64,000 nucleotides of DNA from Paraspadella gotoi (taxonomy: Eukaryota > Animalia > Chaetognatha), in contig CM119265.1 in the NCBI GenBank assembly GCA_051294375.1, positions 15,042,963 through 15,106,962 of the forward strand, given 5' to 3'. The notes beneath the pieces were generated by a model. The model did no database searches, was not told where the DNA came from, and worked only from the letters and a program-made list of their open reading frames with translations. The position numbers were made by a program, and so were the translations under genes. This document shows positions 12,855 through 55,200 of this stretch, one piece after another. The number at the start of each line of letters is the position of its first letter. Position 1 is the stretch's first letter.

Positions 12855-28513
<15,659 letters not shown>

Positions 28514-30874: not shown

Positions 30875-33800
30875 ATGGCGACGCTCACCCCGACATCCGG
30901 GGCAATATTGCCTGCCGCGGTTGGCGCCCCGACTGTTTACCAGCCGCCAGGTGGAACAATTCAACTGAGCGTGCTGATTGATTTCATAGTCCAGCGGACT
31001 TATCATGAACTGCAAGTCTTATCGGAACTGCTTCCGCGAAAGACGGATATGGAAAGAAAGATAGAAATTGTCCAGGTACGTTTATAATCTCGATATCCGT
31101 TGCGCCTCTTTTAATTCTAATTTTATTCATTTTATTTTCTAGTTTTGTAGCCGCACCCGCCAACTCTTCATTCGCCTCCTGGCGTTAGTGAAGTGGGCCA
31201 ATAACTGTGGCAAAGTTGATAAATGCGCCCAGATTACTGGCTTCCTGGATCAACAAGCCATGCTGTTCATACACTCTGCGGACAGATTGGCTCAGATTTC
31301 TCGAGAATCTCTTCCACAGGCCAGGTAAACTTTTCAGTTAGTAAACCGAGAAATAGTATTATAGACGCGACGTTTGATTTAAATCAGACTAAGCGTGTTC
31401 TCCATTCCTCACGCCATTGACGTTTTGACGACGGGCACCTACCCTCGCCTTCCCTCGTGCATCAAGGAGAAGATCCTGCCTCCAGACCCGATCACGCCGG
31501 TCGAAAAGGATTCGACCCTGAAGCGACTGGATCTCATCATCCAGCACCGGTGGGTGCGGTCTTTTGTTTTGTCGAGACCGTGTTCCCGGTGACTGACCAG
31601 TTCGTTCCGTTAAACCGCGCAGAATCGCCAGCAACGAATTTCCTCCTCAGTTGGCCATCGTCGGCATTTCCTCTGGCAAAGTTTTGTTCCGAGTCGCGGA
31701 TGAGTTTTCCGCGACTCTGACGGTCATGGGCGACGCAGGCAACTTCCCGTGGCGTCTTCTCGACGTCGAGATTCTCGTCGACGATCACGACACGTCGGAC
31801 GGAAAGGCTCTCGTCCATTCTTTGCAAGTAGGTTTCGTAATAACGAGTCGTTGATCGAGACGGCGGAAACTTGTTTTATTTTTGTTCAGGTCCAGTATCT
31901 CCACCAACTCCTTCAAGCGCGCCTTTACGAGGCGGCGCAACCATTGCATGATCTTTATAACGTTCTCCACGCCTTCTGCCTCTCGCTGCAGTTGGAGGTA
32001 CTGTTTTCCCAAACCACGAAACTGCAGAACGAGCGGCTAGGCGACGTTATCATCGTTGAAAACTATGTCGTGGGTCGCAGTTTGCATCTTGGATATTGGC
32101 GTGAAAAAGCCAAGCAGTTGGAAGGTAACTTTCGGCCGGAACGCAGTCTAGTTTTAATTTATTTTAAGTCTCGCTTTAAAACTAAGGATCGACGGGCTAC
32201 TCGCTGATCATCACCGTCGACGGTGATTCTCCACAAAAGCCGCTCTCGGTGACTCACAAACCGCCATTGCCCAAAGCCAGTCGTTCCAATAGAGTCGACG
32301 TCAAATTAAGAAGCGACAAACTCTCCGTAGAAAATTTGCTCATTCTTACCGCTCAGGTTGATCAGATTTTAAACTACTTTATTATTTTCTTAAGAACAAA
32401 TTCTGTTACAATTATTAAAATATTAATAAATTAAAAAAATAGGCTCGCTCATTGGTGGCCCTAGAGGCAATCACTCCGCTCTTCCAAACACGAGTTCAAG
32501 GCGATTGCGAGTTGGGTGGGACTCCGCCAGTGTTGACGGTTCCTCTGCTTCATCCGTGCATCCCGTCGGAGATGTTGAGAATATCTGTTTCAATTAGATC
32601 AGGTTAAGTCTAATAATGATCGCAATATTTAGTATCGCGGTTCCATGATGAATTTAAATGACTTTCGTTCTCCTGAAACACGATGACAACTTATTTTCTG
32701 AAGCTATTTCAATATACACAGATGCCGCCTACGGTTTGGAAAACGACGCTAATGTCCAGGTTTTCTATTTTGCAGGGTACTATCGTTTAAGCATTCCTGT
32801 CTTTGACTCTTGTGAAGCTTTAACGGACATGGAATCTGTTTTAAATGGTCCCTCGACTGGGTGGAACAAATTGGCCGGTTTAATCTCCGGGTTAGTCCTA
32901 CTTTACATGAAATAAACCTGTTTGTTACTTAAAACTTATTTTTAACTTTAGTTTAAGCGTGAAATTGACGATGCATCGTTGTCGAAATTCGATACAACAT
33001 TTGCCGGTGTTAATCATGGATTCCCTGCCTCTCGTCGGAATCGAGAAAAATCCGATCGCCAACTTGTCAAAGGATTCGATATATATTAAGTTATTAAAAC
33101 ATCCTGGTTTTTATATAGTTTACGAAACAAAACAGGTTGGTAGGTTAAAATGTGATGGAATGATTAGGTATAGTTATTGAAATTATTTATCCGAGCTTGA
33201 TTATCACCTTTTTCTAGATCGAAGGAGCGATTGAAACTAAATTTCATCTTCTACAAGCGAAATCTTGTCGATTTGCCAACGGAGATGCTGACGGCGACGC
33301 TTCCGCTCCTCAACTTTACCTTAAACCTTCTCACTTTCTTGAGCTTGAAAAGTTTATGCTCTTACACGGTCCGACCACGGAACTGTTCCATGAAGCGAAT
33401 GAAGGTAACCTCATTTCCTTACCCATCGTATTTATGAAACAGCGTTTCTAAATTTAAGCTCTCGCCGAGATCGATGGCCTTCCATCCTTTCGCCCTTCCG
33501 AGGGGGATCTCACCTTTGACGAAAAGCTTTATTGAAACGCTAAATAAGAGATACTGGCTCTCCACCGAAGCCCGATGCCAAATCGTGAAGGTCTTCAACT
33601 AAATGCCAGTCACATATGTTAATTACCCAACATGATTTTTTTCAATTCATCATTTAATACCTTTATACAGTTGAAGAGGATCCAAATCGCCTCGTCAGTT
33701 CGGAACCTTTGCAAACGCTCTTTACGAGCGGACGAAAACGCAAGTCCTGTGAACCCTCGGGTGCTTCGTCAGCTGCTAAAACTCAAAAGATCATGTCCCC

Positions 33801-36800
33801 CTATTTGCTTCCCGAGCTGCCATACGTAGTCTCCGTTTGTGACGATCGTATTCCCTTCATTACTTTACAGGAAGAACTTAACAAGCATGGGATTCATCAT
33901 CAGGTAACCGGCGAAAATGGTTAAAAATTACTTGTAAAATTAAATATGATGAATTCAAACAAACTGAATTATGTTGTGGAGTGATAATTCCTCGTTTCTG
34001 AAAATTTAAAAAAAAAAATTTTCAAACTAAATTTGACTATTTGCATTGAACGTCTTACTCTTACTTTCCGACAGGGCGTTCAAATTGAGGGACCTGGATT
34101 ATGTCTACAGTTGACTATAACTTCTTTTCCCGCGGTTGAAAGCAATGATTCACTCGCGGCCCAAGAATTAAACAGAAAGTTGCTCAAGTGCACGTTAAGG
34201 ATGCAAGGAAAAGTGTCTAACCCCAGAGTTTGGGTCGCTGAATTTTTGTTTAGAGGTTAGAAATAGGGTATACTATTATACTATTACTAACATGGTAACT
34301 AAAACATGGATTTTCTTCTAGATCCTCCTATTGCCTCTTCTCACGTGTGGGAACAACACAGCGTAAGACGTGTTCTTTTGGTCTTTGAACAATTTCAAGC
34401 GCTCGTCCCCGAGCTCTTGTTACATTGGGTATCTTTAGTTCATCTACATTGGGCCGTTTCTCAACTTGGAACCGTTTTGGATCCTCTCCATAAGACGTCC
34501 CTGCACGGAAAGGTGATTCGAGAGGAGTTTTGATAATCTTTGCCCAGTGACCACACCAGGAATGATGATAATTTTTCACCACTATTCAATCAGATTTGAT
34601 TGACAATCTCATGCACCACCGTCTGAGGAATTTGCGAATAGTAATTATTTAAGCTAAAGATTCTGAAATGGGCTGAAAATAGTTTCTTCTTTATTCAGGT
34701 GGAGGTGAAATGCTTTAACTACAAGAAAGTGACGCTCGGCTATGGGACCGACTTTAGCTATCTGGTCAACCTTGGTTATTCGGCTCATCAACGCCAGTTC
34801 GTTGTGACTTTCGGGTCTCGCGGCGGCTTTGGTTTTAACGGCCACTCACTCTTGGCGCCGTTTTACTTGTCCCTTTTTAACACGACGCGATCTTTGCCTC
34901 TTTTGGCTCAGACACTGGTCGTCACTTCTGCTCCAATGCAGGCGTTGGTTAAACTAAGTCAGGTGAGTGAACTTCTGTCTACAAATTTCAAGAGTAGAAT
35001 AAATGATGTTCTTCCACCAACTCTGTTAAACCATTCTACGGTTTATGCGGACAAATTTCATCACCCACTTGTCTGACGTTTTACTTAAACTATATCAATA
35101 TTACTAGCCATCGCTGCCATTCGATATCGGAGCTTTTTCTTCTTCCAGATGCCCCTTCTGGGCGTCGCGGAAAGTTCCTGGACGCCGACTCCCGGATTTT
35201 CTATATTGCCTCAATCTCCAACGCATCTTCGTCTCGCCTGTAACGGCTTGTATGTTTTGGACATAATTTGCCAGGAAAACGGACTCGTGGCTGTTCGGGA
35301 CGGAGCCTTCAGCCGTTTCGACTGCTCCTCCGTTGTCGAGGGCTTTATTCCCATCCAGAGTCTCAAAACTTTCCTGATCCAATTTGTGGACGAACGAGCC
35401 GTTGAAGCGCAACGGCACTCTTCGTCAGCAGACGACGACAATCCTCCTTCGCCAATCGGAGTGGAAACCGTCGAACCATCGCTTAATACACAAGTAGTTT
35501 TTTCTTTTCTTACCAAAATTCTTTTAATATGCAAGTGCTGGTATGTAAATTTTTTTTTTCTTCAGAACGTTAGCATTAACCCACGCACCCCCGGTGCAGC
35601 GGCTTCTCCCGCTGGTTCTGTTCTCCCGCGCGGCGGCTCCTCATTCCCGATGACCCCGTCTCCGGCTAATCCTTTGACGCCAGCTTCTCCGGCAGGAGCG
35701 GTTAATCGCGGCCCGTCACAGTCGCATGCATCTCCAGGTTGAAGAAAATTCCTAATAATGAAATTAAAGATTCGGTTAAAATTAAGACGGTCACAATTAA
35801 AAATATTTTTTCAAATTTTGAATATCAACTTACTCACTAATTACGATATCCTAAAATCCCCTTTTCAGGGGCGGCCTTTCCATCTCTGACCTCACCATCT
35901 GCTCCCTCACACCATATCACTCCTTCGCCGATGATGGGAACCCCCTCACCAGTAACAGTTTTCACGGGTAAGTTTTTCTAGCCTTGTTTTTTTTCTCGGT
36001 TTGAACTTTGCACGTTTTTGGCAGCCGCATCTCCGGGTAATATTCACGTTCCTTCGCCATCTTTCGGCCACGCTCCCTCTCCTTCCGGTGTCGGGGGAGT
36101 CATGCCTTCGCCTTCCTTCATTTCGCCAAATTCTCCGGCGAGAGGCGGTGAGTTAACTAGTTATTCTTCAGTTAAACCTATATAATCCTTCGTGATGAGA
36201 CATTATCACCAACAACAATCGATACGATGGTTGACAAAACATGCACCACTATCTGATGATAAAAAAGTTGTAACTTGTAACTTGTAACTTGTTCCCCTTC
36301 ATGATTATCGAGTCCTTTTTTTAGGCCCATGTGGCATTCCGGCTTCGCCCAGACAAATGGGTTTAGCCCATTCTCCAGCTGTCTCCGTTCCACAGAGTAA
36401 GTTCAGTAGAAATAATCGTGCATCGATATCCAGCAGTAGAAACCCCATACTCTTGGTTATTTTGTTCTCGCTTCGCAGATTTACCGTTGGCCCGTCAGCT
36501 TCCTCAGCGTGCCTGGGCTGCATCCGTTCCTACACTCCTATCTCACGAAGCCCTGCATACGCTATGTACCCCTTGTACTCTGAACGGATTAACATCGACC
36601 ATTCCTATCTCACCGCTTGAAAGGTTTGTTTTATGTTAGTCACGTGACTATTTCGGCCATATTCGAGACCATTGTTTCGAGGAGAAGGCCACGTGGAATT
36701 GTTTGGCGTTTCTCCTGATGATTACCCATGCACCACTCTGAACTTTTGACAATGCTGATTAAATCGGATCTGAAAATAACGCGCATACTTGTACGGCTAT

Positions 36801-38157
36801 AGCCGTAAAAATTTAGAAAAAAATAAAATTGAAATATCTTTTTTCAGATTTATCGGTTGTTCTACGTTAAGAAAACATCTTCAACGAATAATTGCCAAGG
36901 AAGAAGTATTACAACATATTTTGGGCTCCGATAATCGTGCAATTATGTTTCAGGTATTTAGCATTTTTTTAAATGTTCTTTTAAAATTCATCATATCAGT
37001 ATGATGAGTCACATGCACCACTCTTAGTGATAATGCCGACGATAACTTAGGTCTCTGAAAAAAAAGTATAAAAGTTAAATTCTTGAATCTTGTCTTATAT
37101 TCGGATTCAATGACAAAGTTTCATTCACAGACTCCGCCGATGCTCAACCACGTTCCTCAAATGCTGGAACCAGGGCTTTCGGCGCGCGTTCTTTTCAACC
37201 CGCAAAATATGTTAACGCTTCATTTGAAAGTTCAACCCCTGCCACATGCCAAGGATGTTTATACTCCGGAAGATCTTGCTATTTTCGAACGTTTTTTCGA
37301 CACCAGAGTGGCCATTCCCCCATATAAGGTTTGTTTTGCTTACAACTGAGTCCTTAGTTTTAGTTTCTGGTTTTAAATATCTTTAATTGTTTTAGATTAA
37401 CAGCCTAACGAGCTTCATGGACTTGTTTAAAGCGCCAGTCCGGGTACTAAAGGATATCATTCGAATCATGTCGTTAGACATGAACAGCTCCGCGTCGCTT
37501 CCCCCTAACAGCCCGCCCCTCAAATGGACTCCGCACATTTGTTTAACTTTGCCCCCTCAAGCGCCCCAAATATTTCCTCCCGGGCATTGCTCTGTTTTTA
37601 TCAAACCGAATGCAAACAAAATTCTCCTCATGCTGCAGCTCAATCGCGTCTTTTCTGCACCCACGGCTTCTGGTAATTCTTGGTTTCTAATTTTTATTAC
37701 TAAGTCAGATATCCGTTGCTCTTTTGTCATTTCTTCATTAGAGGGCGCTTTAGTCGCTTTTTTAACCTCGTGTTTCACCGATCCGATCTGTTCATTTTTC
37801 TCCATTATTTCCTAGCTTCGTCCCGAATGCTTTGTACAATCTTTTACAAACCGTTTGATTTCCGCTCTTGATTACAACGATTACTTTTGTTTCGCTATTT
37901 CAGGATCATCACCGTCCCCACCAGAAATAATGAGCGTCTGTGTCCCTATTTATCACGAGATTAGCTCCAACCAAACTTCATATCTCCAACCACCGCCGTC
38001 AGCTGTGTGTTTGGCCGTCGCCTCGCATCTCCAGCAATTTAACGAACAATTCCGCAACAAGAGGCAGATGATGCCGCAGTCGGGAGGTGGAGGGGTTACG
38101 GAATGCAGCCTCTTTCCTTCCGTCAAAGACTTGCTCCTCAATTTAAATTTAAAATGA
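30875..38157 (+). CDS. MED14: Mediator complex subunit 14, many short introns
   Basis: [89 protein letters not shown], and C-terminal [15 protein letters not shown]. Confidence 0.93.
32645..32701 (+). ncRNA. SNORD59: Box C/D snoRNA, U59/snR54-like (MED14 intron)
   Basis: ATGATGA...CTGA. Guide gactttcgttct is antisense to 18S AGAACGAAAGUC. Confidence 0.85.
33946..34001 (+). ncRNA. Box C/D snoRNA, snR57-like (MED14 intron)
   Basis: The D-box guide aattcctcgtt is antisense to 18S AACGAGGAAUU. D+5 falls on the G of AACG. Confidence 0.75.
34562..34626 (+). ncRNA. SNORD33: Box C/D snoRNA, U33/snR55-like (MED14 intron)
   Basis: catgcaccacc-gt-CTGA is antisense to 18S GGUGGUGCAUG. Confidence 0.8.
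35003..35076 (+). ncRNA. Box C/D snoRNA, paralog of 39406-39467 (MED14 intron)
   Basis: ATGATGT...CTGA. tccaccaact is antisense to 18S AGUUGGUGGA, and catcacccact is antisense (with GU pairs) to 18S GUGGGUGGUG. Confidence 0.7.
36192..36256 (+). ncRNA. SNORD33: Box C/D snoRNA, second U33-like copy (MED14 intron)
   Basis: GTGATGA ... catgcaccact-at-CTGA. Confidence 0.78.
36715..36773 (+). ncRNA. SNORD32: Box C/D snoRNA, U32/snR40-like (MED14 intron)
   Basis: CTGATGA ... ccatgcaccac-t-CTGA (D'), terminal CTGA at 36770. Confidence 0.75.
37001..37058 (+). ncRNA. Box C/D snoRNA, second U32-like copy (MED14 intron)
   Basis: ATGATGA ... catgcaccac-t-CTTA (D') ... CTGA. Confidence 0.7.
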
Positions 38158-38276
38158 TCATACTTTGTTTTTCTTAATTTTTGTTACCAGCTGTCATTCT
38201 TTTCCATGAAAACTATCGGTGGTCAATTTTTTTCGCGTTTATTTATTATAGAAGTTCATAAGCAAATCATCCACCA

Positions 38277-39904
<1,628 letters not shown>

Positions 39905-40571
39905 GTGCAAAGTCACGGCTTAATCTAGGGGATTCGGGATACAGGAATATAGTGAATTTCAACCGACTATTTGTACTTTATTAGGTCAAAACTTGTTAAG
40001 ATTCTAATAATTGGAATTTTGTCAATTTCCAAGTTTTAATTTAAATGTTTTTTCGTTTAGTGCATCTTTTTAATATAAAATTTATGAAACTGTTTCGAAA
40101 TACTAAAATAGTCATGGAACTATGTTTGCCTTGTCAACGGAATCGGATAATGGATCTGCTTTACTGATCGCTGATGGTAAGAATCTTATTCAGAGATTTA
40201 AATATTCTTCAACTGTACTTGCAACCGTATGATGATAAAAATACAGATGAGGACGGTCGCCTGAACCAACATTTACAATCGTTCAGTTTTAAGTTTACTT
40301 AAAATGACCAGAATTGAAGTATTAGTTTTTTTGTAATAATTAGTTTTTTTACTTCAATTTTGCGGATTGTCATCTTTATTTTGGTTCAAGGCCCTATGAT
40401 TACCTACCTGTGCACGCCTGATCATAATTGGAATGTATGGGATGTATTTATAGTTGTTATTTAAACTGATACGTTTGTTTCATATATTTCAGATGACCCA
40501 ACGACCTTCAAATCGAGTTGCAATGATTGCCGGTAAATATTGAAGATACTACTGTTTCATGTATGAGTAAA

Positions 40572-40626
40572 ATGATGATTCAGGTCCGTGTTGTTGATTA
40601 AATGAAAACAACCCAACCTTCTCTGA
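40572..40626 (+). ncRNA. SNORD18: Box C/D snoRNA, U18-like
   Basis: ggtccgtgtt-g-TTGA is antisense to 28S AACACGGACC. Confidence 0.82.
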
Positions 40627-40768
40627 ATATCAAAAATAAAGTACCTTTAAGTTGACAATTGAAGACAAAGATTGACATGTCGCTATTTCTTCCAGGCATT
40701 TCAAATTTCCTGGTGATGTGAACGAAAGGACCTGCAGAGGTAAGAAGAAGTTTGTTAGCTGTATTTTA

Positions 40769-40950
40769 TGCACAGATCAGCTCTAGAGATTTATTTTCTG
40801 TGAAATCTCCGGCGTTTCCAACTGTGCAGATTAACGCCGTCTTTAACGGCCGAGTCTGAACAACTCTATCTCGATCGCTATCTGAAGCGAGCTTCAGTTT
40901 CTCGCGTTGGACGAAGTCGAGAAACATACAGATACTATCAACTGACAATT
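40769..40950 (+). ncRNA. Candidate box H/ACA RNA
   Basis: Hairpin tgcacag...gagattt/aaatctc...ctgtgca, H box AGATTA (40828), branched 3' domain, ACA-att at 40945. Intronic. Confidence 0.5.
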
Positions 40951-41172
40951 ATTATTGTAGCATTTAATTAAACTTACTAATGCTAAATTGTTAAGTTATC
41001 AAAAGCCGTGAATACAAAATTATGTAGTACCTGAATAATCATATCCACCATAAATTTTTTTTTAGCTTATCGTTCATCTTATAACTTCGCGGCCTGTGTT
41101 ATCGAAAACTCGCAACGTTATTTAGGTAAGCGAAATCATAAATAAAAATGATTTCATTAATTAAATGCTTTC

Positions 41173-41285
41173 ATGATGAAAAGCTCCCTCGTTGTAGATC
41201 CTTCTTTAAGGCTGGTGCCCGAAAGGGCAAGAACCCACCAGCTGAAGGTGGATCAGAGACCATAAAATGCCGTGGGGCTGTCTGA
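41173..41285 (+). ncRNA. SNORD22: Long box C/D snoRNA, U22-like
   Basis: 113 nt from C to D box with a long internal stem. The core ctggtgcccgaaagggcaagaacccaccag and the ending ctgtCTGA resemble vertebrate U22. Confidence 0.7.
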
Positions 41286-41439
41286 AGACTAATTTTTTTT
41301 TCCTTAAATAAACCTTAGTTTTTCTGTTTTAACCTTGATAATTTAACTTTTAGGTTACAACCCGCTTGGAGCAACAACTTACATATGGCAACTGCCGGTG
41401 GGTTTTTGTTTTTCTTATTCAAAATAATCCATATTTTGA

Positions 41440-41498
41440 CTGATGATCACATTAGATGCATTTCCGAAATACATGCGGACAAATCGTTGCCCGACTGA
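41440..41498 (+). ncRNA. Box C/D snoRNA candidate, target not recognised
   Basis: CTGATGA...CCGA...CTGA with an atatt/aatat flanking stem. Intronic. Confidence 0.55.
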
Positions 41499-41660
41499 AT
41501 ATATTTTTTGACAACAAAAGTATTTATGTACTTTTAAGAATGGGATCTTACTCGTTTCTTTTTTTTAGGATTATCCTGGGATGATTTCGCTCGCTGATTC
41601 AGCATGTCGGGTACTTTACAATTGAAATATATTCAAATTCAATTGGCAAACTTAAACACG

Positions 41661-41724
41661 ATGATGATTACTTCTTTCCCCATCAGAGTGAAAGGTGCTG
41701 AAATTTTATTATTTAGTTTTCTGA
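41661..41724 (+). ncRNA. SNORD12: Box C/D snoRNA, SNORD12/snR190-like
   Basis: cttctttcccc-at-CAGA is antisense to 28S GGGGAAAGAAG. Confidence 0.85.
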
Positions 41725-41882
41725 CAAGCTTAAATTTAAAAAACCTTCATTGTCTAGAATTTCGTAATAAAAAATTATACATATTCTTTTAGGCACGAAT
41801 TTGGACGTTGTGTACTAACTGAATCGCGAGGTGAGCGAGCCTACTATTCGTTATCAATTAGTTTCGTAAATGTTGCGTTTTT

Positions 41883-41938
41883 ATGATGAATTAGTCCGTG
41901 CCATATGAAAAAAATCGCTGATTTATGGTCATTTCTGA
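41883..41938 (+). ncRNA. Box C/D snoRNA, 28S guide
   Basis: gtccgtgcca-t-ATGA is antisense to invertebrate-type 28S UGGCACGGAC. Confidence 0.72.
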
Positions 41939-42344
41939 TTTTAACGCTTATTTTTTAAGAAAACGGTTTCGATCATCTTTAAACGAAGAAGGCTTATAAA
42001 TAAAAATGAATCTACTCCTAATTATGAGATTTTTTAATTTCTTAACCATAAGAACATCGCCCAGATTTTATCCTTCTCTTTTGAATAAAACAGTTGAAAA
42101 CTGTTTTTTCTGTGGTTAAAAAATTGTTTTTAATTCAATATATTCCTTTTCACATTTCAGATGGTTGTTTTACTCGTTCAGTTTTTCTGCCAGGTAATTT
42201 TTAGAATTTTTTCGATTGGTTTGCTGTGTACGTATGCGACGCATAAATATGCTTTCTAGTTTCTATACAGTGTCATGTTACTTTTATCATACTGTGATTT
42301 GCTAATCATGAGACGAAATAGTTTCAAAAATTAACTTTAATTTC

Positions 42345-42401
42345 ATGATGATAGTACGATAGGGACATATGAATCAGTCCTGATTAATTATCTTAATCTG
42401 A
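42345..42401 (+). ncRNA. SNORD74: Box C/D snoRNA, U74/snR64-like
   Basis: gatagggaca-t-ATGA is antisense to 28S UGUCCCUAUC. Confidence 0.8.
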
Positions 42402-43102
42402 ATTGAAAAACTAGTCTCATTTGTTTTTCAGTTATTTGTTTATATTAACATATTTTTTTGTTTTTCTTTGCTTAGCCTCGCTTGTTTTGGAACAGTAATG
42501 AACTCTATTATAAAAGTAAGTTATCTTTAATGAAATATTAAGTTTTTATTGCGCCGAGAGTACTCGCGGAGCAACTTTTTTCGGTCCGTCGGTCTGTCCC
42601 ACTTATATTAAAATAAAAATGTTCTTAATATGGTAACAGCCGGGTTGCCTGTGATGCCCATTGGGATGGGGCATCTCACTGTTGGCTTTGTGAATATACC
42701 GCCACAATAACTTGCTTATAATTGGTTGCTAATATGTTAAGACAGGAAATCTCAAATCTAAGTAACTGCTAGAACTGCCTTCAGGAAATCCTAAAACTAT
42801 AGAATAAGACGGAATTCCGATGCAGTGCGTGTCATAAATACACTGGCTCGGAAAGTTATTTTCTTGTGCAGGTTTCATACTAGTGTAGTCACGTGACCAC
42901 CCAAAACTACGGTCACGTGATCCCAAAGTAAATGCGTCGTATATTGTATGTCGGAAATAAATCTACAGAAAAGTGATTTTGCTTATCCATGATATTAATT
43001 GAACCTTTTCTACTGTGTTGCAGATCCTCGCCGCAAAGCTTTTGGAAACCTACGATATGTTGTAAGTAAACCATATAATTTTTTTGTGGTTAAATATTTG
43101 TT

Positions 43103-43154
43103 GTGATGAGATTTAAGGAACCTTTGACAAAATGAAAATAATATATCGTTCTGA
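43103..43154 (+). ncRNA. SNORD42: Box C/D snoRNA, U42-like
   Basis: atttaaggaacc-t-TTGA is antisense to 18S GGUUCCUUAGAU. Confidence 0.72.
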
Positions 43155-43314
43155 ATTACAATCTTCATTTTGTAGATATTACCATGTAAATTATCTATTG
43201 GTACAAGTCTCTACTTTTGATTTTTCCTAGGCTGTATTGTTGGGCTACCTGTATACATCAAGATTGATTCGAGGTGAATAAGGATACATAATTTATGAAT
43301 TTTAGATAAATAAA

Positions 43315-43366
43315 ATGATGGCTTGTGTCAGACTTTTGAAACTACTGAAACCAAATTCTTTGCTGA
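43315..43366 (+). ncRNA. Box C/D snoRNA candidate, possible 28S guide
   Basis: ATGATGG...CTGA. gtgtcagact may pair with 28S AGUCUG(G/A)CAC. Confidence 0.6.
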
Positions 43367-43753
43367 TTATAAAGAAAGAAAGAATAATTAAAGTAATTAG
43401 GCCTTTTAAGTCTAAATGGCAATTTCTGTTTTTCAGCTTTTAACGGCGTTAGGGGACATTAGTAGGACAACACAAGGACAAAACCTGGCATTAGTAAGTT
43501 TCTTTTATAAAATAGCTTCCTTATATTTTAAAAATTTTGTCGCGTTTAATATTTATATAAATTTTTAAAGCCTTTTTTTATGGTTTACTAGAATAAGTCT
43601 CAATGTTACACATTTAATATTTCCGTTGTGGAAAATTCTAAAATCCCCCAGTAAATTACGCCCGATTTCAAATATTTCAATTTGGCTTAATATTAACTAG
43701 TAACAATTTTAAGACTGGTTTAAATTAAAAAAAATTCGCGACATAGTTTCTCA

Positions 43754-43809
43754 ATGATGATCCTGGTCCGTGTTGTTGATTTTTATGAAAAAAACATTAC
43801 CACAACTGA
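43754..43809 (+). ncRNA. SNORD18: Box C/D snoRNA, second U18-like copy
   Basis: tggtccgtgtt-g-TTGA, paralog of 40572-40626. Confidence 0.82.
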
Positions 43810-44236
43810 TTTATGGTAAAAATAAAAGAATTTTACAGAATGGAAATGCATTAATAACATACTATTTTCTGTTTTGACATCAGGAAATTCGTGGCGTCAA
43901 AAAGTAATATTCGTTCGTTGATATTATCTTCGTGCAAAGTGGGTCCCGACTTACCGTAAGTTCGTTTAGCTGAAAACCTTTAAAACGTTCTGTCTTATTT
44001 CTTCATAGTCTTTGTAGGTTTCGTGATTAAAAATTTAAAAATTAATACCGGTATTATTCTTGAATAAAGACGAGTTTTGCTTCGGATTCGTTTTTTTTTT
44101 ATGAAAGGAACATTCACGATATTTAACTGTACATAAAATATCTTCGAATGCCAGGGCGAATTACTTATAAATCATTTATAAATTTTCTTAATCACGAACT
44201 CTACAATTGCTATGGCGTTATGAATTCTTAATTCAT

Positions 44237-44291
44237 ATGATGCTCACTTAGGACACCTTTGATTTGAAAATGAAAATCACCAAATATCTGA
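44237..44291 (+). ncRNA. SNORD58: Box C/D snoRNA, U58-like
   Basis: cttaggacacc-t-TTGA is antisense to 28S GGUGUCCUAAG. Confidence 0.82.
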
Positions 44292-44503
44292 TGTTTTCTG
44301 AGTTTTTTTTTTTTTTTTTGTTAATTGAACTTTCAAGGATTAAGCAATGAATTTTTTTTTAAGGCGGATTTGCAAACTACCTGACCGCTTATTTTTAATA
44401 AAATCAGCCCTGGACAACTGCAGTAGTCAACGTAACTTAAAAATATACTTCGTTAAAGTAAGTTTCCCATTTTCATAAAAGATTGTTACTTAATTGTAGT
44501 TGA

Positions 44504-44559
44504 ATGATGACATTTTAGGACACCCTTTGAAAAATATGTGTAACTACTTAATTGTCTGA
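44504..44559 (+). ncRNA. SNORD58: Box C/D snoRNA, second U58-like copy (register shifted by 1 nt)
   Basis: ttaggacacc-ct-TTGA. Confidence 0.78.
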
Positions 44560-44704
44560 AAAACTGCTGAGATAAACGTTAAAAAGTTAGTCACGATTAG
44601 AATATCCACCGGACCTCTTTTTATCCTTTAGGTACCTCGTTTGAAAGAACTTTTGGCAAGTAAGTAGAGTAATTGTGCTATTTATTTGCAAGCTCTTGTC
44701 AAAT

Positions 44705-44778
44705 ATGATGAATATCTACTGACACCTCTAGTGTAAGCAATGCAATTGGCATTCGATGAACGACTTTGAATTATCTGA
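44705..44778 (+). ncRNA. SNORD60: Box C/D snoRNA, U60/snR48-like
   Basis: ctgacacctc is antisense to 28S GAGGUGUCAG. Confidence 0.72.
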
Positions 44779-44935
44779 GTTTTATAGAACTTATAAAATG
44801 TAGAAAAACTTGATTAAACGATAAATAGGTATGTATATGAATATTTGTTTCTTAGGTACCAATTCGAGGGATTGTTCAATCGAAGGTCGAATTTGGCATC
44901 GGAATCGGTGAGTAATTTTGTTTTTGGATCAAGAT

Positions 44936-45061
44936 TACCTGCTTGAACCAACAAACAAAATAGTTTTTGCTTGTGTTGAATGCAGGTTAGATTAAAAAAG
45001 GGTCATGTGAATATTATAATTTTTTTTCGGAAAAAAAAATTTTTCGCATAGCCCTAATAAT
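44936..45061 (+). ncRNA. Candidate box H/ACA snoRNA
   Basis: Hairpin acctgc...gcaggt, H box AGATTA, second hairpin aggg..atgtgaa/ttcgcat..ccct, terminal ATA variant. Intronic. Confidence 0.45.
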
Positions 45062-45223
45062 TTTTTATTTTTTTCCTTAGTGTTGTAGCCAATCTACATT
45101 TCTAAGAAATTGGTTTGCAATTTGGATTTGAAGAATATTTACTCGGTCTTTGATGTTCTTTTTGGACTTACCAACTCCGCTCAAGTAGGCAATAAGAAAA
45201 CTTAATTGTGACTATAAAAAAGC

Positions 45224-45280
45224 ATGATGATATTTCACTGCTGTTCACAGTCTGAATATTTTGTTGATATATGAATCTGA
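45224..45280 (+). ncRNA. Box C/D snoRNA, 28S guide
   Basis: actgctgttcaca-gt-CTGA is antisense (13 nt) to 28S UGUGAACAGCAGU. Confidence 0.8.
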
Positions 45281-45432
45281 TTATCAATTTTTTTTTATTT
45301 TTAAGCGTTTACTATTTTAAAGTAGGAAAGTAATTTGTTAATTCTTTTAATTCCAGGCGAAGGTCACTCTCATCAATTGCCATGGTAAGTACGGTTGAAT
45401 TTAAGTTGAATTTGGTTGATTATTATCATAAT

Positions 45433-45490
45433 ATGATGCTTAACCATCTTTCGGGTCTGATTTAAATTGATTGACAACATTTTCAACTGA
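45433..45490 (+). ncRNA. SNORD2: Box C/D snoRNA, snR39B/SNORD2-like
   Basis: accatctttcggg-t-CTGA is antisense to 28S CCCGAAAGAUGGU. D'+5 falls on G. Confidence 0.82.
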
Positions 45491-45688
45491 AACCTTCAAT
45501 AGAAGCTGTTCTTCTTTCTTCCTGAGGCAAGAATCAAAAATAATTATAATCGTTTTTCTTTAAGGTTACTAACTGCAATCTCCATAAGATTAGAATTGCG
45601 CTCTTTCGGATATGCGTCTTTAAGTTAACCGACGACGACCGTTTGCAGGTTACTTTCTAATACGTTTAATCTATTTTTTTTTATAATC

Positions 45689-45745
45689 ATGATGCTAATC
45701 AATACCATCTTTCGTCTGAGAATTATGAAGAAAGTTTATCACTGA
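45689..45745 (+). ncRNA. SNORD51: Box C/D snoRNA, U51/snR39-like
   Basis: accatctttcg-t-CTGA. D'+5 falls on the A two nt downstream of the snR39B site. Confidence 0.8.
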
Positions 45746-45950
45746 AATCTCTTTTATTTTGATCATCTTCGAATGTTCTGTTTTTATAGTATGGCCATAG
45801 TTATTCTTTTTTTAATATTTTTAGCTTCCTGAAGGAGTGAGGGTGTAAACGTCATCGTAACCGGCAAATTCGTCCATGAAGATTTTGCGACTTACAGGTA
45901 TATGCTTAAATATGAAATATGCTTAATATTATGCTTATTTTCTATTGTAT

Positions 45951-46000
45951 ATGATGAGAAAGTTTTACCTGATCATTTGATGAGATCCCTGCAATTCTGA
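45951..46000 (+). ncRNA. SNORD96: Box C/D snoRNA, U96-like (5.8S guide)
   Basis: cctgcaatt-CTGA is antisense to 5.8S AAUUGCAGG. Confidence 0.72.
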
Positions 46001-46124
46001 TCAAGTAACAAAATCTAGTCGGCACTTTTTTTATGTTTGTGAACTTATCTTTAACTTATCTTTAACAGGAACTTTCAATTTGGAGGTAATTACACTTCTA
46101 CTGCAATCCTCTCCTCAATAAAAA

Positions 46125-46190
46125 GTGATGAGTTCATAGTTCAAATGAATGGATGCTTCAATCCTTGACGAAAAATTCGCCCCTATCTGA
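46125..46190 (+). ncRNA. SNORD80: Double-guide box C/D snoRNA, U80/snR60-like
   Basis: catagttca (28S UGAACUAUG) and ttcgcccctat-CTGA (28S AUAGGGGCGAA). Confidence 0.88.
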
Positions 46191-46355
46191 CATTATAATT
46201 AAGAACAATGTCTGGTGAGACAAGGTACCATTTATTTCTAACGGTAAAATATGGTTTCTTCAGATTAAAATTACGCCGAATAACTTCGCAATATTAACTG
46301 GATTTATTTCTTAAGGTAAGTGAACTTTTTTATGTGAATTAGTGATAATTATAAC

Positions 46356-46409
46356 GTGATGAGTTCATAGTTCAACTGTATACCTGACGAAAATTTCGCC
46401 CCTATCTGA
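46356..46409 (+). ncRNA. SNORD80: Second U80/snR60-like copy
   Basis: Same two guides as 46125-46190. Confidence 0.86.
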
Positions 46410-46550
46410 AAAATATAATTTTATTTAATTTTAAGTATATTAACGATTCGCTACTAATATTTAAATTCTTTTTTTAGGTTACAATCGAATTTACTTGAAA
46501 CTTTCTTTGGGTAAGTTTACATTATTATTTGTTTGAAAATATAAACATCT

Positions 46551-46604
46551 ATGATGAAAGTACATTTTGGGCGACTCTAATGAGCTTTTGCTTACCAAGT
46601 CTGA
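46551..46604 (+). ncRNA. Box C/D snoRNA, 28S guide candidate
   Basis: tgcttaccaag-t-CTGA is antisense to 28S UUUGGUAAGCA. Confidence 0.68.
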
Positions 46605-46749
46605 GATAAAATCGTCATATCAATAGCTTTGTATCAGAATTTTCTCCTTTAATAGTTTTTTCTCATTTACAGGGAATTAAATCTTGCGAACTCGCTCATC
46701 AAAGGTTCGTGCGTGTTACTGTCTTCAGCGTGATAACATTCGTAATTAA

Positions 46750-46799
46750 ATGATGAACAATTGGGACGTATACTGAAACATGATGTTTTTAGCATCTGA
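46750..46799 (+). ncRNA. Box C/D snoRNA, U82-like
   Basis: gggacgta-ta-CTGA is antisense to 18S UACGUCCC. Canonical C' (ATGATG) and D boxes. Confidence 0.68.
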
Positions 46800-47121
46800 A
46801 TTCAATCGTGTATGAAACCGCACTTAGTGGGCATCTACAGATTTTGATTTCAAATATTATTCTTTTAGGATCATGCCTATTCCGCTATTGGCTTTGAATT
46901 TTCTCTGACTTCACTATATGACAATACTACTTTCGGCGACAACAATCAAATTCTAAAGACTAATCTTCTGAATTATAAGCAGTCCTGTTTGTTTAAGTAA
47001 CTTCTTTTTGAAACTTTTTTTTGAATCAATTGTTTTAGACTACGGTTAGTTTCCGATCGCGTTTTTCCATTTTTTCATGGATTTCTTTTTTTTAACAGAG
47101 GGGTTAAAATAAACTAAAAAA

Positions 47122-48204
47122 ATGTTGATGCCCAAGAAGAATAGAATTGCTATTTACGAGCACCTCTTCAAGGAAGGTGTGATGGTTGCGAAAAAAGATC
47201 TATTCGCACCAAAACATCAGGTATGATTTTAAATGCTGTAACTCTGTTACAATTCCTGCGTTATTCGTACGTGGAACTTTTTAGATCCATGTATTGCGAA
47301 CGCTGGTATATGAAAATCAAAGAAGTATCTCCGATTTTATCCTTGTTTTTCCGGTTATAAATTGGTCCAATTTCTTTGAACATACACTTTTCAATCGACG
47401 GTTCAGTTTTTCGAATCATGAAGACTAAAGACTTTCTTTGCAGGAATTGGATAACGTCCCTAACCTTCACGTTATCAAAGCATGCCAATCTCTAAAGTCT
47501 AAAGGAATGGTGACGGAACAGTTCGCCTGGAGGCATTATTATTGGTGAGTGAGAACTTTCATTGTCTTTAAAGATTAGTGCATACAAATTTTTTTAGGTG
47601 TCTTGTAATCTTTTATCAGATTTCGTTTCATTTTTGATATTTAAAATTTTTGCTTTTAATTTCTTTTTTTCTCCTAAATTCAGGTACCTCACGAACGAGG
47701 GTATTCAATATCTCCGCGACTTTCTTCATCTTCCTCCGGAGATCGTTCCCTCAACCCTCAAGCGGGCGACTCGTCCCGAAGCGCGACCTCGCGCCGCCGG
47801 AGCCGACAAGCCACGCCCATCGGGACCGGGGGCGGGTGCCGGCGAACGTTCCGAATACAGGTACGTCCGAACGTGTGGAAAGAAGGAAGATAACTTCCCC
47901 ATTATGATGAATACTTAGATGACGAGTCTGAATCTCGACGGAAAAGATAGCGGTTCGACGTGTCTTACGTCAATTCGTAACGTTTTTTCTATCGAAGTTT
48001 GAAAGACGCTCACATTTCTGACTTCCTCGCGAGTTTGCATTCAACGGCGCTTGAATTTTGCATTCCCCACATATTTATTTTTTGTGTCGTTTGATTTCCA
48101 GACGAGGAGGCGGAGACAAAACCGGGGAGGCCGGTGCCGGTGCACAGAAAGACTTTGAATTCCGAGGAGGATTTGGGCGTGGGAAACCTGCCCCCTCCGA
48201 ATAA
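47122..48204 (+). CDS. RPS10: 40S ribosomal protein S10 (eS10), 4 exons
   Basis: [73 protein letters not shown] and FRGGFGRGK. Confidence 0.96.
47257..47386 (+). ncRNA. Candidate box H/ACA snoRNA (RPS10 intron 1)
   Basis: Hairpin gcgtt...aacgc, ANANNA hinge, hairpin tcaaagaa...ttctttga, then ACA-tac. Confidence 0.45.
47904..48021 (+). ncRNA. SNORD15: Long box C/D snoRNA, U15/snR75-like (RPS10 intron 3)
   Basis: ttagatgacgag-t-CTGA is antisense to 28S CUCGUCAUCUAA. Long structured insert as in U15. Confidence 0.8.
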
Positions 48205-48437
48205 GAAATAACATCACTTGTCGCCAACATCTTGGTCGATTTCAATTCGATTGATTAGTCCACGACCACCTTTGTGATTCTTTGGGCAAATAGAAAGGGC
48301 CTTGTAGTAGTAATGTTTTATTTAGTGTTTTTCTTCAAAAAGATGTTTAAATAAAACCCCATTTTCAATGTTTCTTTATTTTCATTAAATTAAAGCGAAT
48401 GATGAACATTTAGCTGTTAACTTGTGTAATACACAAA

Positions 48438-50014
<1,577 letters not shown>

Positions 50015-51264
50015 AATCGAAGGACAGCAAAAGAAACGCACACGGAACCGGTTGCAGATAGCTTTCCAACTTGACGTACGAATGGATTTTTAAAATGATT
50101 GTGAATGATATCTGGACTCGCATTTTGTCTTAACTGCTTCCAGTTTGTTGAAATTTAATAAAGTCGAATGTTTTATATGCCGCACGTTTTTATTTCACAA
50201 TGACAAAAACGGGCAGTTCTGTTAGCTTTTATATATATACTAAGAACTATGTTACTAGTTTTATTATTTCTTAATGAGTGCCAGAGCACAAAATAAGGTT
50301 AGCGGCATAAGCTCATGAAAACTACACGGTACACACAGAAGGCTAAAATGAGGTAACCGTTTTTTGTGACCAGAATCTGTTCACAAACTACCCGATCATA
50401 TTTCATGAAATTTGAATCGCTAATGACTTAGGGGTAGTTTTGGTCATGAGGGTGAGGGTAATAATTTTAAAAAGATTTTTAAATTTTTTAAAACGCCAAA
50501 ATAGTGGTCGGTGAGAGTAAAATTAAACTAAAAATTTTAACAAATAAAGAATATTCATTTATTTTAATTTAAAATAACTAAATGTTTTTTAATCAAGCAA
50601 GTGATTTGTAACTTTCATATTAATATTAATTAGGCTAGTATCCTCAGAAGAAAGTATTTTGACAAAAATATTTTATCCAAATCGATGATAGATTGTTTTG
50701 CCTCTTGGGAATTCGTTACTTTTTATTTACTTAAAATGGCGCTCAGATTTTGGAACAAGGTTGGTAAGTTTTATTTATCAACAATTGGCGAAGAGGACGG
50801 GATAAAAATGTTTACAATTAAAAACGGGGTGTGGAATTAATTATTTAATTTCGAGTTTAAAAAAAATAAAATCTTGACTTAAAAACGATTATAAACAACT
50901 CCCAACGCGGTTAAAAGCGTTGAACGCCTAGGGTCTTCAAGAGGCATAAGTTTCTCTCTCGCGAGACGTTTAAACAATAATATCGTCACATTCGAATCAA
51001 ATCTTCTCGGGAAACGGGCGAGGCAGAACCCAGATATTAACTCGTCGGCGAGTCCCACGGCCACGGTCGTGTCAAATGACGTCCGTAACTAAATTTTTAC
51101 CACGGTGCGGTCTTTGTATCCATTTAATTTTGTTTTCCTTCTTGCGTCGAGTCTCACCTTGCGCAATAATATATTTTTTTGTTCAGTAATACAAATTTTA
51201 TAAATAATAATTGTTTTAAATTTATTTTAATTATTTTTATATTTGAGGTAGAAAATGAATTGTT

Positions 51265-52277: not shown

Positions 52278-55200
52278 GGTTAACCAGGCAAATTCGTCCA
52301 TGGGGCCGAAAAAAGATTTGGCGACTACACGGTTATCATGCTTAAATATATGAAATATGGCTTAAATTATATTCATTGCTATTTTCTATGTATATGATGG
52401 AGAAGAAAGTTTTACCTGATCATTTGATGTAAGATCCCTTGCCCAATTTCGATCAAGTTAACACAAAAATTCTAGTCGGCCCCACTTTTTTATGTTTTTA
52501 TGTGGTGAACTTATCTTTAACTTTTATCTTTAACAGGACTCTTTTCAAATTTGGAGGTATTACACTTCTACTGCAATCCTCTCCTCAATTAAAAAGTGAT
52601 GATTCAATAGTTTCAAATGAAATGGTATGGCTTCAATCACTTTGACGAAAAAATTCAGCCCTATTCTGACATTATTAATTTAAGAACAATTGTCTGTGAG
52701 ACAAGGTACCATTTTATTTTCTACGGTATTTTTAAAATATATGGTCTTCACGATTTTAAAATTACGCCGAATAACCTTCGCACGCATATTAACTGGATTA
52801 TAAGTTGCCCTTTGTTTTTCTCTCAAAATCCTTTTTATTTCTTAGTCTTCTCTTTGACTCGGAGATGGCCGACGCGAACAGATGACAATATATGACTCAA
52901 ACGAAGCCAAAAACTCTGACAGTGAATTAAATAAACGAGATGGCATGATGGGTTCCGTTCTCCATTTCTTTTATTCTATCTCCTATATCTTCTTTTGGTC
53001 TTTTTTTTAGATATACTTTCCCGTCAAGTGTTATAGAGCAATAATTCCCCGGTCAACTACATAATGAACTTATATGGTCTTTTACTTATTTAACTCGTTA
53101 AACTTATGTTAATTTGTAATTTAAATTCCAACGTTGTTTGGAATCTATTTTTATGATTTTTTGTACATCATGACTGATGCTAAAATCTTGATAATTTTCG
53201 GTGCGCAAATCTCATGCTTCTTTCAACGCAGTTGATTTCATACGTAATTAACCCGCGCTAGAGAAATTTGTAATTGTTCGATGTGACCCAAATTGACAAA
53301 TAATCGTGCTCTCTTGGAAGTTGTCCTCAGCGTTTCTCACACTGACTTACGATCGCCTTTCTCGGAAGCTAAATCTGGGTATTAATTTAGTTAAGATTAA
53401 TCTAATTAATCTGAATTTGGGACGATAAATATTGATTCCTCTTACTTCTGTCAATTCTACATTTCATCTCGGGAGAAAAAGTTTAAATACTGTTTCAGCG
53501 TAGGACCATTATTAACATATCTGAATACCGTTTATGTGAAAAAAAATTAAAACTTAACTGTTATAATCCGAAAATATTCCTCTGATAAATTATTAATACG
53601 ATGAAATTAACCAAGTAGCCCGGTATTATTAACCGGTATCTCATGCTACTAATATTTTATTAAATTCTTTTTTTTTATGACCCTCAGTCGTTGTACTCAT
53701 ATTATAATATATCGAATCTAATTATAACTGAAACTTTTCTTCAGAGTCCTTCCTTTTGTTAAACCTATGAGAGATAAAAACTAGTTTTCATGGATTCCAC
53801 TTTCAGATAACTGGATTTTATGATATTTTGACCTTTAGTTTATTTGATATATATAATAAACATCCCTAATGGATGGAAACAGTACATCAGTTGGGGGCGA
53901 CCTGTCTAATGGGGCTTTTTGTATTATGTTTCTTACCAAGTCTGATGATAAAAATCTATATCAAGAGCTAGGGTCTGTTAAGCAGAATAAGGTTTCTCGC
54001 CGGGCTAGAAATTTAACTAGTTTTGGTTTTTTCAACTCAAGAATTTTACCTACACCGGAAGATTAAATCTTCGGCGCGAACGTTTATTTTTTTAATCCGG
54101 TTTTCGTTTCGCTTCAATTCAAAGATTGGTTCGTCGTTTTTGTTACTGTGTCTTTATAGAAATCTTTCTGGTTGTTTAAAAATGGTCGTTGTTATATACA
54201 TTCTTCGTAATTAAATGTATCAATGATAAACATACAAAAAAGTCATGAAAATCTAATTGAGGCGAATGGAAACCCCGTTAATACCCATGAAAACACATGA
54301 TGTGTCCAGTTTAAGCCCCATACTGAATTCTAATCGTGTATGAACCGCAATAATTCCCAACTATGTAATAAGTGTGTAAGCAGCAATCAATACATTTAAA
54401 TTAAATTAGATTTCAAATTTATTATTCTTTTGAGGTAGGATTCTCTCCGGAAGATGATCCTAATATGAAATTCCGCTATGGATCCTCCTCTGACACATGA
54501 TTCGGTTATCTCTGGATCTGAACTTCACCAACCATAATATGACGGAATAGATTTACTAGATCTCTGTGGCGCGACAAACAATTCAAATTCTAAAGTACGT
54601 ATATTATTGATGGCTTAACTCGAATTAAATTATAAGGCCCGACAGGTCCTGTTGAGTTTAAAGTAACTTCTTTTCTCTTGAAAAACTTTTTACGGGTATA
54701 GAGAGATCAATTGTTTTAGGACTACGGTGAGGTCTCCTGATCGTTCGATTTTGCCACTTTTAATTATTCTCTTACTGGATCCTAATTCTTTTTCTGGTGG
54801 TGTTTACAGAGGGGGTTTAAGGACGAATAAAAACTAAAAAAAATTTACGGAGCAGTCACTGCCACGTCTTAATTTAGAAATTGTGCTCAATAAATTAAAT
54901 AACTGACCCGGCAAAAGGAAACAAGAAGATAGATAATTTAGCCTCACTTATACTCTGTTTAAATGTGCACCCTCTGGCTTCATTAACAGTAATAAAAGGA
55001 AGGTGTATCTAGGGAAATACTTTTCGGCCGGGAATGAGTCTCTCGCTGCACACACAAAGATATTGCCACTCTCCAAATTCATGGCGACGGGCCTGAAAAA
55101 TACGAATTTAATATTGTGAACATTAATATTGTAACTCTGTTTACAATTTCCTGCGTATTCGTACGTATGTGATATCTATATTTTATTTAGACCATGTATT

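Follow-up and report, generated by a model that had tools for sequence, protein, structure and literature searches.

Box C/D modules between RPS2 and RPS10

The DNA analysed here is a window of 64,000 nt from contig CM119265.1 of the chaetognath Paraspadella gotoi. It contains the genes MED14, RPS2, RPS10 and RPS3, packed head to tail on the same strand, and between RPS2 and RPS10 lies a fifth member, which is almost certainly a spliced, likely non-coding host gene for small nucleolar RNAs (snoRNAs). This host occupies positions 40061-47098 of the + strand, with 25 predicted exons and 24 predicted introns. The exons measure 17-116 nt, except for a last one of 230 nt, and most of the introns 162-230 nt. 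From the RPS2 stop (39904) to the RPS10 start (47122) the G+C content is about 30-34%, and neither strand of this interval contains a stop-free frame of 70 codons.

The units of the host follow one order: a donor, a C box and a D box, a pyrimidine tract with its AG, and a short exon. As 25 exon starts are spread over about 6.8 kb, one unit takes up about 280 nt. We found 21 clear modules of 50-113 nt in the 24 introns, all on the + strand; their terminal C and D boxes lie within the 50-120 nt that define a C/D snoRNA, and their number gives the gene the many snoRNA-bearing introns of a host. The D box stands 61-79 nt upstream of the acceptor in 19 of the 21. In vertebrate hosts the C/D snoRNA is found about 70 nt before the acceptor, and the spacing of 61-79 nt seen here would fit splicing-coupled assembly of the snoRNA ribonucleoprotein.

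The strand bias is strong: between 40 and 48 kb there are 17 exact C boxes on the + strand and none on the - strand. Moreover, a strict module filter, which catches only 11 of the 21 clear modules, returned 11 modules on the + strand of the host, none on its - strand and none on either strand of a further 43.7 kb from the rest of the window. Applied to 300 shuffles, the same filter found 0.15 modules on average and never more than 3. Three further candidates are doubtful, namely a module at 40229, a structured RNA at 40790-40950 and a structured stretch in intron 16. Intron 1 holds two candidates, while introns 9 and 16 are without a C/D module. An earlier note on this DNA had proposed about 24 intronic snoRNAs in a rhythm of ~250 bp. 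The order of elements is as described there and there is roughly one module per intron, but the units are longer than stated and up to three of the snoRNAs are doubtful.

Exon model and splicing of the host

The exon model was drawn by eye with the help of splice-site scores, for which 13 introns visible in RNA contigs served as training set, and the 5' and 3' limits of the host were inferred from unpaired acceptors. On the + strand, predicted exons 1-8 lie at 40061-40176, 40493-40532, 40696-40739, 41066-41125, 41354-41397, 41569-41610, 41793-41830 and 42161-42193. They are followed by exons 9-16 at 42476-42515, 43024-43061, 43231-43273, 43437-43493, 43884-43955, 44364-44457, 44632-44659 and 44856-44907, and by exons 17-25 at 45081-45184, 45357-45384, 45565-45648, 45825-45897, 46069-46085, 46264-46315, 46478-46510, 46673-46704 and 46869-47098. 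The model may also need an extra exon of 56 nt at 42872-42927 or an alternative donor at 41695, inside the SNORD12-like RNA. Either one brings the predicted length to within 2 nt of the RNA contig, and the two are indistinguishable.

For RNA evidence we used contigs of four runs (X1-X4) placed on the window, the RNA nature of the runs being taken from spliced joints. In X1, 26% of the sampled window words are present, which is roughly the exon share, and the introns of RPS2, RPS10 and RPS3 are removed from its contigs. Four of the 24 host junctions appear directly in RNA contigs. The displayed host joints comprise 45898>46262, which encloses a 17-nt micro-exon, then 46509>46672 and, in both X1 and X3, 46698>46867; 45 further joints fall outside the display. 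As the RNA evidence comes from a single read-placement result, most host junctions are predicted ones. In addition, one X1 contig of 2008 nt with a flat depth of 2679.7 appears to hold RPS2 and most of the host. Depth served solely to count the bases covered by one flat-depth contig, not to rank expression. Contig cover agrees with the exon model to about 3 nt in 12 of 16 bins, one of which (exon 17) was fitted afterwards. The four misfitting bins are two that adjoin a repeat, one in which two contigs are mixed, and 41382-41785.

Predicted snoRNA families and rRNA guides

No match in the whole window reaches the Rfam gathering score, and therefore the family names used here mean "like" and not membership. 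When narrow searches are judged by Rfam E-value instead, a C/D family is matched at E<=0.1 by 13 of the 22 modules, the best at 1.3e-6; E-values shrink with narrower search windows, so these are favourable figures. The families are SNORD58 (three times), U18 and snR60/Z15 (twice each), SNORD12, SNORD22, SNORD2, Me28S-Am982, Me28S-Cm2645 and snoR1. One of the three SNORD58 matches (43103) probably comes from box geometry alone, and the matches to SNORD82 (E=0.18) and SNORD57 (E=0.17) are weak. Minus-strand matches to SNORA69 and SNORD19B, as well as microRNA, CRISPR and bacterial matches, were set aside as noise.

Guide targets were searched in proxy rRNAs, that is, eukaryotic ribosomal DNA (rDNA) contigs within prokaryote assemblies, rather than in the species' own rRNA. 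We used 10-11 of 53 proxy rDNA loci, picked for length and spread. Box-adjacent duplexes were better than those of shuffled modules for 8 of 22 modules at p<=0.05 and for 12 of 22 at p<=0.07. Guides 45433 and 45689 are circular in this respect, as the proxy rDNA was fetched with their targets; omitting both, the counts are 6/20 and 10/20. Most called targets are in large-subunit (LSU) rRNA. An early loose guide scan, which gave many A+T-rich chance duplexes, was superseded by the shuffle-controlled test, and long single-reference duplexes for 40229 and 41440 were judged chance, as they lie in stretches absent from the other proxies. The 52 listed rDNA matches in prokaryote assemblies (L002-L053) look like eukaryotic rDNA contamination, and Rfam agreed for the two scanned.

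Human names are attached to several modules below (U74, U80, U51, U60, U73, U96 and U42); they are presumed from target sites. Along the + strand, the doubtful module at 40229-40264 has a perfect C box, with the first CTGA only 32 nt on (p=0.11). The module at 40396-40469 has a variant C box and lies only 23 nt from the acceptor (p=0.78). Then come a U18-type guide with an LSU target at 40572-40626 (SNORD18, E=0.094; 10-nt duplex, p=0.065) and, in intron 3, the structured RNA candidate at 40790-40950, a multi-branched fold ending in CTGA (z=-2.6) without an Rfam match, which could be a small Cajal body RNA or a processing snoRNA. The U22-like snoRNA at 41173-41285 matches SNORD22 over the whole model (E=0.041); U22 is a processing snoRNA in vertebrates. 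The next module, 41440-41498 (p=0.26), is an orphan: in the proxy rRNAs no target was found for 40229, 40396, 41440 and the intron-3 RNA. A SNORD12-type LSU guide occupies 41661-41724 (E=0.00019; 11-nt duplex, p=0.055), a likely LSU guide 41883-41938 (10 nt in one metazoan proxy; p=0.71), and a Me28S-Cm2645-type guide, presumably U74, 42345-42401 (E=0.025; p=0.07).

In the second part of the array, the module at 43103-43154, a U42-type 18S guide by presumption, is the SNORD58-like one of probable geometric origin (E=0.021), and no match to the U42 target was found in the proxies. It is followed by a snoR64/Z200-like module at 43315-43366 (E=0.64, p=0.82), with a possible LSU target of 11 nt including 2 G-U pairs in one proxy, and by a second U18-type guide at 43754-43809 (E=0.017; p=0.05), a paralogue of 40572. 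The first SNORD58-type guide, 44237-44301, scores 39.7 bits against a gathering score of 42 (E=1.3e-6; p=0.015). The second, 44504-44570 (E=0.0026; p=0.01), is shifted by one base in register and would mark the neighbouring U. A snoR1-type guide, presumably U60, at 44705-44778 (E=0.00045) has a 13-nt exact LSU complement and a degenerate D' box, and a guide for a conserved LSU site lies at 45224-45280 (13 nt in a fungal proxy; p=0.055). The two guides whose sites were used to select proxies are a SNORD2-type at 45433-45490 (E=0.0027; 14-nt duplex) and a Me28S-Am982-type, presumably U51/U32, at 45689-45745 (E=0.00069). A likely 5.8S guide, presumably U96, at 45951-46000 matches SNORD57 and has an 8-nt core at 12 proxy places. 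Two snR60/Z15-type double guides, the first presumably U80, are found at 46125-46190 (E=0.0052; p=0.025) and 46356-46409 (E=0.011, and E=0.004 for ceN111; p=0.01); snR60-type and U18-type guides are thus both duplicated in the host. The array ends with a guide forming a 13-nt LSU duplex, presumably U73, at 46551-46604 (p=0.005; no Rfam match) and a SNORD82-like module at 46750-46799 (p=0.24). The U96 and U82 guides have only partial or no exact cores in the proxies.

Some introns hold other structured or repeated stretches. Multi-hairpin stretches in host intron 16 (44915-45070, z=-3.9) and in RPS10 intron 1 (47225-47440, z=-3.5) are possible H/ACA-type RNAs, without support from Rfam. Host intron 13 has, before the SNORD58-like RNA, a long inverted repeat at 44013-44205 (z=-4.0), which is a transposon remnant or a structured RNA. 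Intron 9 contains a repeated element at 42570-42820, where many contigs have loose ends at 42629 and 42689, and part of this element recurs at 20.5 and 25.0 kb. Neither the inverted repeat nor the repeated element was counted as a snoRNA.

Coding potential of the spliced host

Several observations weigh against reading the stretch as a non-coding snoRNA host. Besides the missing gathering-score match, p<=0.05 is not reached by 14 of the 22 guides, and the bin 41382-41785 shows 82 nt of contig cover beyond the exon model, which is unexplained. Moreover, the longest AUG frame of the spliced model (1494 nt) spans 104 codons across exons 1-7, a length reached by 1.2% of sequences with shuffled bases, 2.2% with shuffled 2-mers and 6.4% with shuffled exon order (p=0.012-0.064). 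The first seven exons might accordingly encode a small protein of 104 aa, and the host would then code for protein and carry a very long 3' untranslated region (UTR) that is spliced. In favour of this are a frame longer than in most shuffles and an A at -3 of the start. However, the frame starts only at the third AUG, the first two belonging to a frame of 27 codons, and it has a codon score of -0.004, compared with 0.055-0.29 for 9/9 correctly framed coding stretches; two further stretches, entered out of frame, were excluded from this range and kept in the training set. The G+C content at its first codon positions is lower than at the second, opposite to the coding exons compared. Its stop precedes 18 junctions, and a stop upstream of many junctions is a typical signal for nonsense-mediated decay (NMD). 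The frame also hinges on exon borders that are predicted, not directly seen. From its composition we read the frame as a product of chance, and consider a small-protein gene very improbable.

The claims of the earlier note can be judged against these data. Its comparison with the UHG, GAS5 and Uhg hosts agrees with the modules, strand bias, spacing and spliced junctions. The description as free of open reading frames holds for the DNA at the level of 70 codons, but not for the spliced model. Guides had been claimed for most modules; about half are supported by the shuffle test on proxies, and four are without a target found. Most family labels were recovered by Rfam E-value, except that U42, U96 and U82 fared poorly on the proxies. 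The Rfam check that it suggested gave matches for 13 of 22 modules by E-value and for none by gathering score, and the check by spliced RNA showed four junctions, including the pair flanking the micro-exon, the others being predicted from the exon model.

Neighbouring genes and signs of an operon

All genes of the cluster are on the + strand. MED14 (30878-38157) has about 7 intronic C/D modules, at 32645, 33947, 34562, 35003, 36193, 36715 and 37001, and E-boxes at 30449 (upstream) and 36640 (in an intron). RPS2 (38252-40058) has its ATG at 38277, its stop at 39902-39904 and C/D modules in introns 1, 2, 4 and 5. RPS10 (47099-48385), with ATG at 47122, stop at 48202-48204 and AATAAA at 48350, holds a snR75-like module at 47904, and RPS3 (48414-50180), with ATG at 48438 and AATAAA at 50157, holds modules at 49013 and 49330. 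Outside the host there are therefore about 7 modules in MED14, 4 in RPS2, 1 in RPS10 and 2 in RPS3, and the cluster total is about 35. The MED14 modules (32640-37062) include SNORD59-, SNORD65-, SNORD33-, Um1356- and two Gm1358-like ones, and module 35003 is a paralogue of that in RPS2 intron 4. To our knowledge MED14 is not a snoRNA host elsewhere. The MED14 protein is 67% identical to a marine sequence and 44-55% identical to other matches, including fish, crustaceans and a snail.

The genes are spaced as in an operon, with same-strand distances below about 250 bp, the cut-off used in PMC12460157. The MED14 stop is 119 nt from the RPS2 ATG, and the RPS10 AATAAA is about 60 nt from the RPS3 acceptor. 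Acceptors without a partner donor are found at AG 38250-38251, 47097-47098 and 48412-48413, that is 25, 23 and 24 nt before the ATGs of RPS2, RPS10 and RPS3, and also at 40060; at the level of the motif, all four are unpaired 3' splice sites. AATAAA is present after RPS10 and RPS3 and absent after MED14, RPS2 and the host, RPS2 having the variant AATATA at 40072. Contigs covering RPS2 stop at 40058 in X3 and at 40057 in X4, adjoining the acceptor 40059-40060, while that of X2 stops at 40021. Three gene boundaries are bridged by continuous X1 contigs, namely MED14 (beyond its stop) to RPS2, RPS2 to host exon 1, and last host exon to RPS10.

According to PMC12460157, trans-splicing affects nearly half of all chaetognath genes, and operons, defined by gaps <250 bp, take in 18%, ribosomal proteins included; in the S14-PCNA operon only 3 nt separate the poly(A) site from the acceptor (PMC2481426). 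The RPS10 tree has 33 rows, 32 of which were chosen among the 120 listed matches, and in it the RPS10 of the window falls inside a clade of marine sequences with support 100/99. Translated leaders stand at the start of these relatives: LSSFNLFK (P0162) or EANFYYFTCL (P0168) in the RPS10 clusters, and LSSFNLFK in RPS3 (P0307, P0310). These peptides are what the chaetognath leaders SL2.0 and SL3 (Table 3 of PMC2481426) give when translated by hand. On this evidence by itself the window would very likely be chaetognath DNA, and RPS10 and RPS3 are trans-spliced in those relatives. For the lineage, a protein atlas yielded no usable match, and five peptide motifs looked for in supplementary files of PMC2481426 were missing there. 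Dicistronic contigs of the relatives might betray themselves by RPS10 and RPS3 records of equal length, but this sign was not used: only one exact pair (1400 nt, P0140/P0330) occurred among the dozens listed, and P0140 ranks only 4th of 20 in likeness to the RPS10 of the window. A metagenome scan for relatives' RPS10 loci gave only 3 bacterial chance matches.

Transcription of the cluster

On balance we favour, by a modest degree of confidence, that the host is transcribed as a member of a MED14-RPS2-host-RPS10-RPS3 operon resolved by spliced-leader trans-splicing. The spacing and unbroken contigs suggest that RNA polymerase II (Pol II) would run on from RPS2 into the host, and the RPS2 3' end would form near 40060-40100. 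The host would probably be capped by leader addition at acceptor 40060, or might persist as spliced read-through. Its 24 short introns would be cis-spliced, as seen at four junctions and predicted for the others, and each lariat presumably debranched and trimmed to the C/D core. Most of the snoRNAs are predicted to guide 2'-O-methylation at D+5, mainly in 28S rRNA, and one, U22-like, to act in processing. Leader addition at 47098 and 48413, as found in relatives, would free the RPS10 and RPS3 mRNAs. The joined exons, a scaffold of 1.5 kb, would be a waste product, degraded through NMD or lost at the RPS10 trans-splice, and one promoter could supply three ribosomal-protein mRNAs and about 35 snoRNAs. 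A variant, which we offer tentatively and consider rather doubtful, is that the scaffold is a cis-spliced leader or intercistronic stretch of RPS10, discarded by trans-splicing and not by NMD, so that every RPS10/RPS3 mRNA comes with one guide set. The earlier note had taken the host as free-standing; it missed the likely trans-spliced operon setting and about a dozen snoRNAs in the neighbour genes.

The operon reading must be set against a number of contrary points. The X3 and X4 ends of RPS2 stem from one study, a two-gene contig does not prove one transcript, and X1 contains intron-covering contigs at a depth of about 4, from pre-mRNA or DNA, which could bridge separate genes. No leader was found on the RNA contigs of this species: of 165 loose ends, the 20 listed include none at a predicted site, and an X2 contig begins at the G of the RPS2 acceptor without loose leader letters. 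Furthermore, E-boxes hint at internal promoters at 36640 and 42889/42913. The motif TCACGTGA occurs 4 times in the 64 kb (30449, 36640, 42889, 42913) against 0.57 expected, one copy upstream of MED14 and three inside the cluster, and the pair at 42889-42920 (+ strand), in intron 9 or the possible extra exon, is a candidate internal promoter. In a hybrid operon, this pair would start a second transcript, and the 3' part of the host, with 14 C/D modules (43103-46799), would be a cis-spliced outron of RPS10 that is discarded on leader addition at 47098; E-boxes 36640/36690 would act likewise for RPS2. Such an arrangement is compatible with the favoured operon. In the fly, Myc peaks lie on E-boxes at Uhg1, 2 and 5 (PMC4430873), and the 56-nt exon with both E-boxes closes the RNA-contig sum to 2 nt, although the donor at 41695 matches the length equally well. 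There is no AATAAA from the last host exon to the RPS10 acceptor, but this has little weight as AATAAA is also absent at MED14 and RPS2. Four motif copies are a small sample chosen after the fact, and X1 record 2 appears to cross both halves of the host. We regard this hybrid as unlikely on its own.

We give equally little credence to a free-standing gene of UHG type, with its own pyrimidine-start (TCT or terminal oligopyrimidine, TOP) promoter near 40065, packed among independent ribosomal-protein genes. Uhg and SNHG genes are known to be laid out in this way, a CTTTTT run is present at 40065-40070, and the contigs leave a shared transcript unproven. However, runs of pyrimidines occur often in DNA as rich in A+T as this, the promoter would overlap the RPS2 3' UTR, and that of RPS10 would be confined to the 230-nt last exon. 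The spliced leaders on the relatives' RPS10 and RPS3 also argue against independent genes. That the host belongs to an operon in some form, either the favoured or the hybrid one, seems quite probable.

Comparison with known hosts and operons

Vertebrate SNHG1 (UHG) and GAS5 are 5'TOP genes with 8-10 snoRNAs, one C/D snoRNA per intron. The chaetognath host resembles them in its short, likely non-coding exons, its U22-like member (as in SNHG1) and its U74/U80-like members (as in GAS5), but here a spliced leader would replace the TOP start. Drosophila Uhg1 has 16 snoRNAs and its own promoter, and the fly Uhg genes, as described in the available part of PMC4430873, are non-coding multi-intron hosts of box C/D snoRNAs, as the present gene probably is, with E-boxes at the locus and tandem guide paralogues. 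Unlike Uhg1, the present host has 21-23 snoRNAs of another set of families (by Rfam matches), is at most about 250 nt from ribosomal-protein genes on both sides, and belongs to a trans-splicing animal. The note's view of an unusually large host is therefore upheld in comparison with Uhg1.

The cluster is like chaetognath operons in its same-strand genes <250 bp apart, its ribosomal proteins and its acceptor just behind the upstream 3' end, whereas the operons described in the available parts of PMC2481426 and PMC12460157 consist of protein genes. The word snoRNA is absent from the main texts of these two papers and from three searchable supplements of PMC12460157. Trypanosome snoRNA clusters also have polycistronic, trans-spliced, polyadenylated precursors, as is predicted for this host, but there nucleases excise the snoRNAs from intergenic stretches and not from the introns of a cis-spliced scaffold (available part of PMC3273796). 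In the accessible parts of the mainly open-access literature on snoRNA hosts, operons and trans-splicing, we found no intron-type host inside a trans-spliced operon, the trypanosome precursors coming closest. This type of snoRNA host is itself known and common; what is new is that it probably lies within an operon of chaetognath ribosomal-protein genes.

If this placement is true, operons can hold non-coding, intron-only members, and a snoRNA host could function without a 5'TOP start. On its way from one cistron to the next, Pol II would have to traverse 7 kb with 24 cis-spliced introns, compared with gaps of about 1-500 bp in published operons, as far as the available texts describe them. The locus provides a first guide set from which chaetognath rRNA methylation may be predicted, including four orphan RNAs, and it suggests how snoRNAs may spread into any intron of a polycistron, MED14 included.

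Duplicated stretches in the assembly

Downstream of a 100-N gap, positions 52281-59602 are a colinear copy of 45858-50300, comprising the host end, RPS10 and RPS3. The copy has very few mismatches and hundreds of small gaps, mostly insertions, and rather than a paralogue it most likely represents an uncorrected long read that was used to patch the assembly. Relative to the window, RNA contigs of X2-X4 have single-base insertions in the final RPS3 exon (49902-49970), and a similar one-base difference occurs near 46699; the frame shifts in this exon are probably assembly errors. Further upstream, an inverted duplication at 18900-26600 carries beta-tubulin-like exons, with open reading frames at 20933-21244 (+) and 24322-24633 (-) that share their first residues, and it is either a recent duplicate or an assembly artefact.

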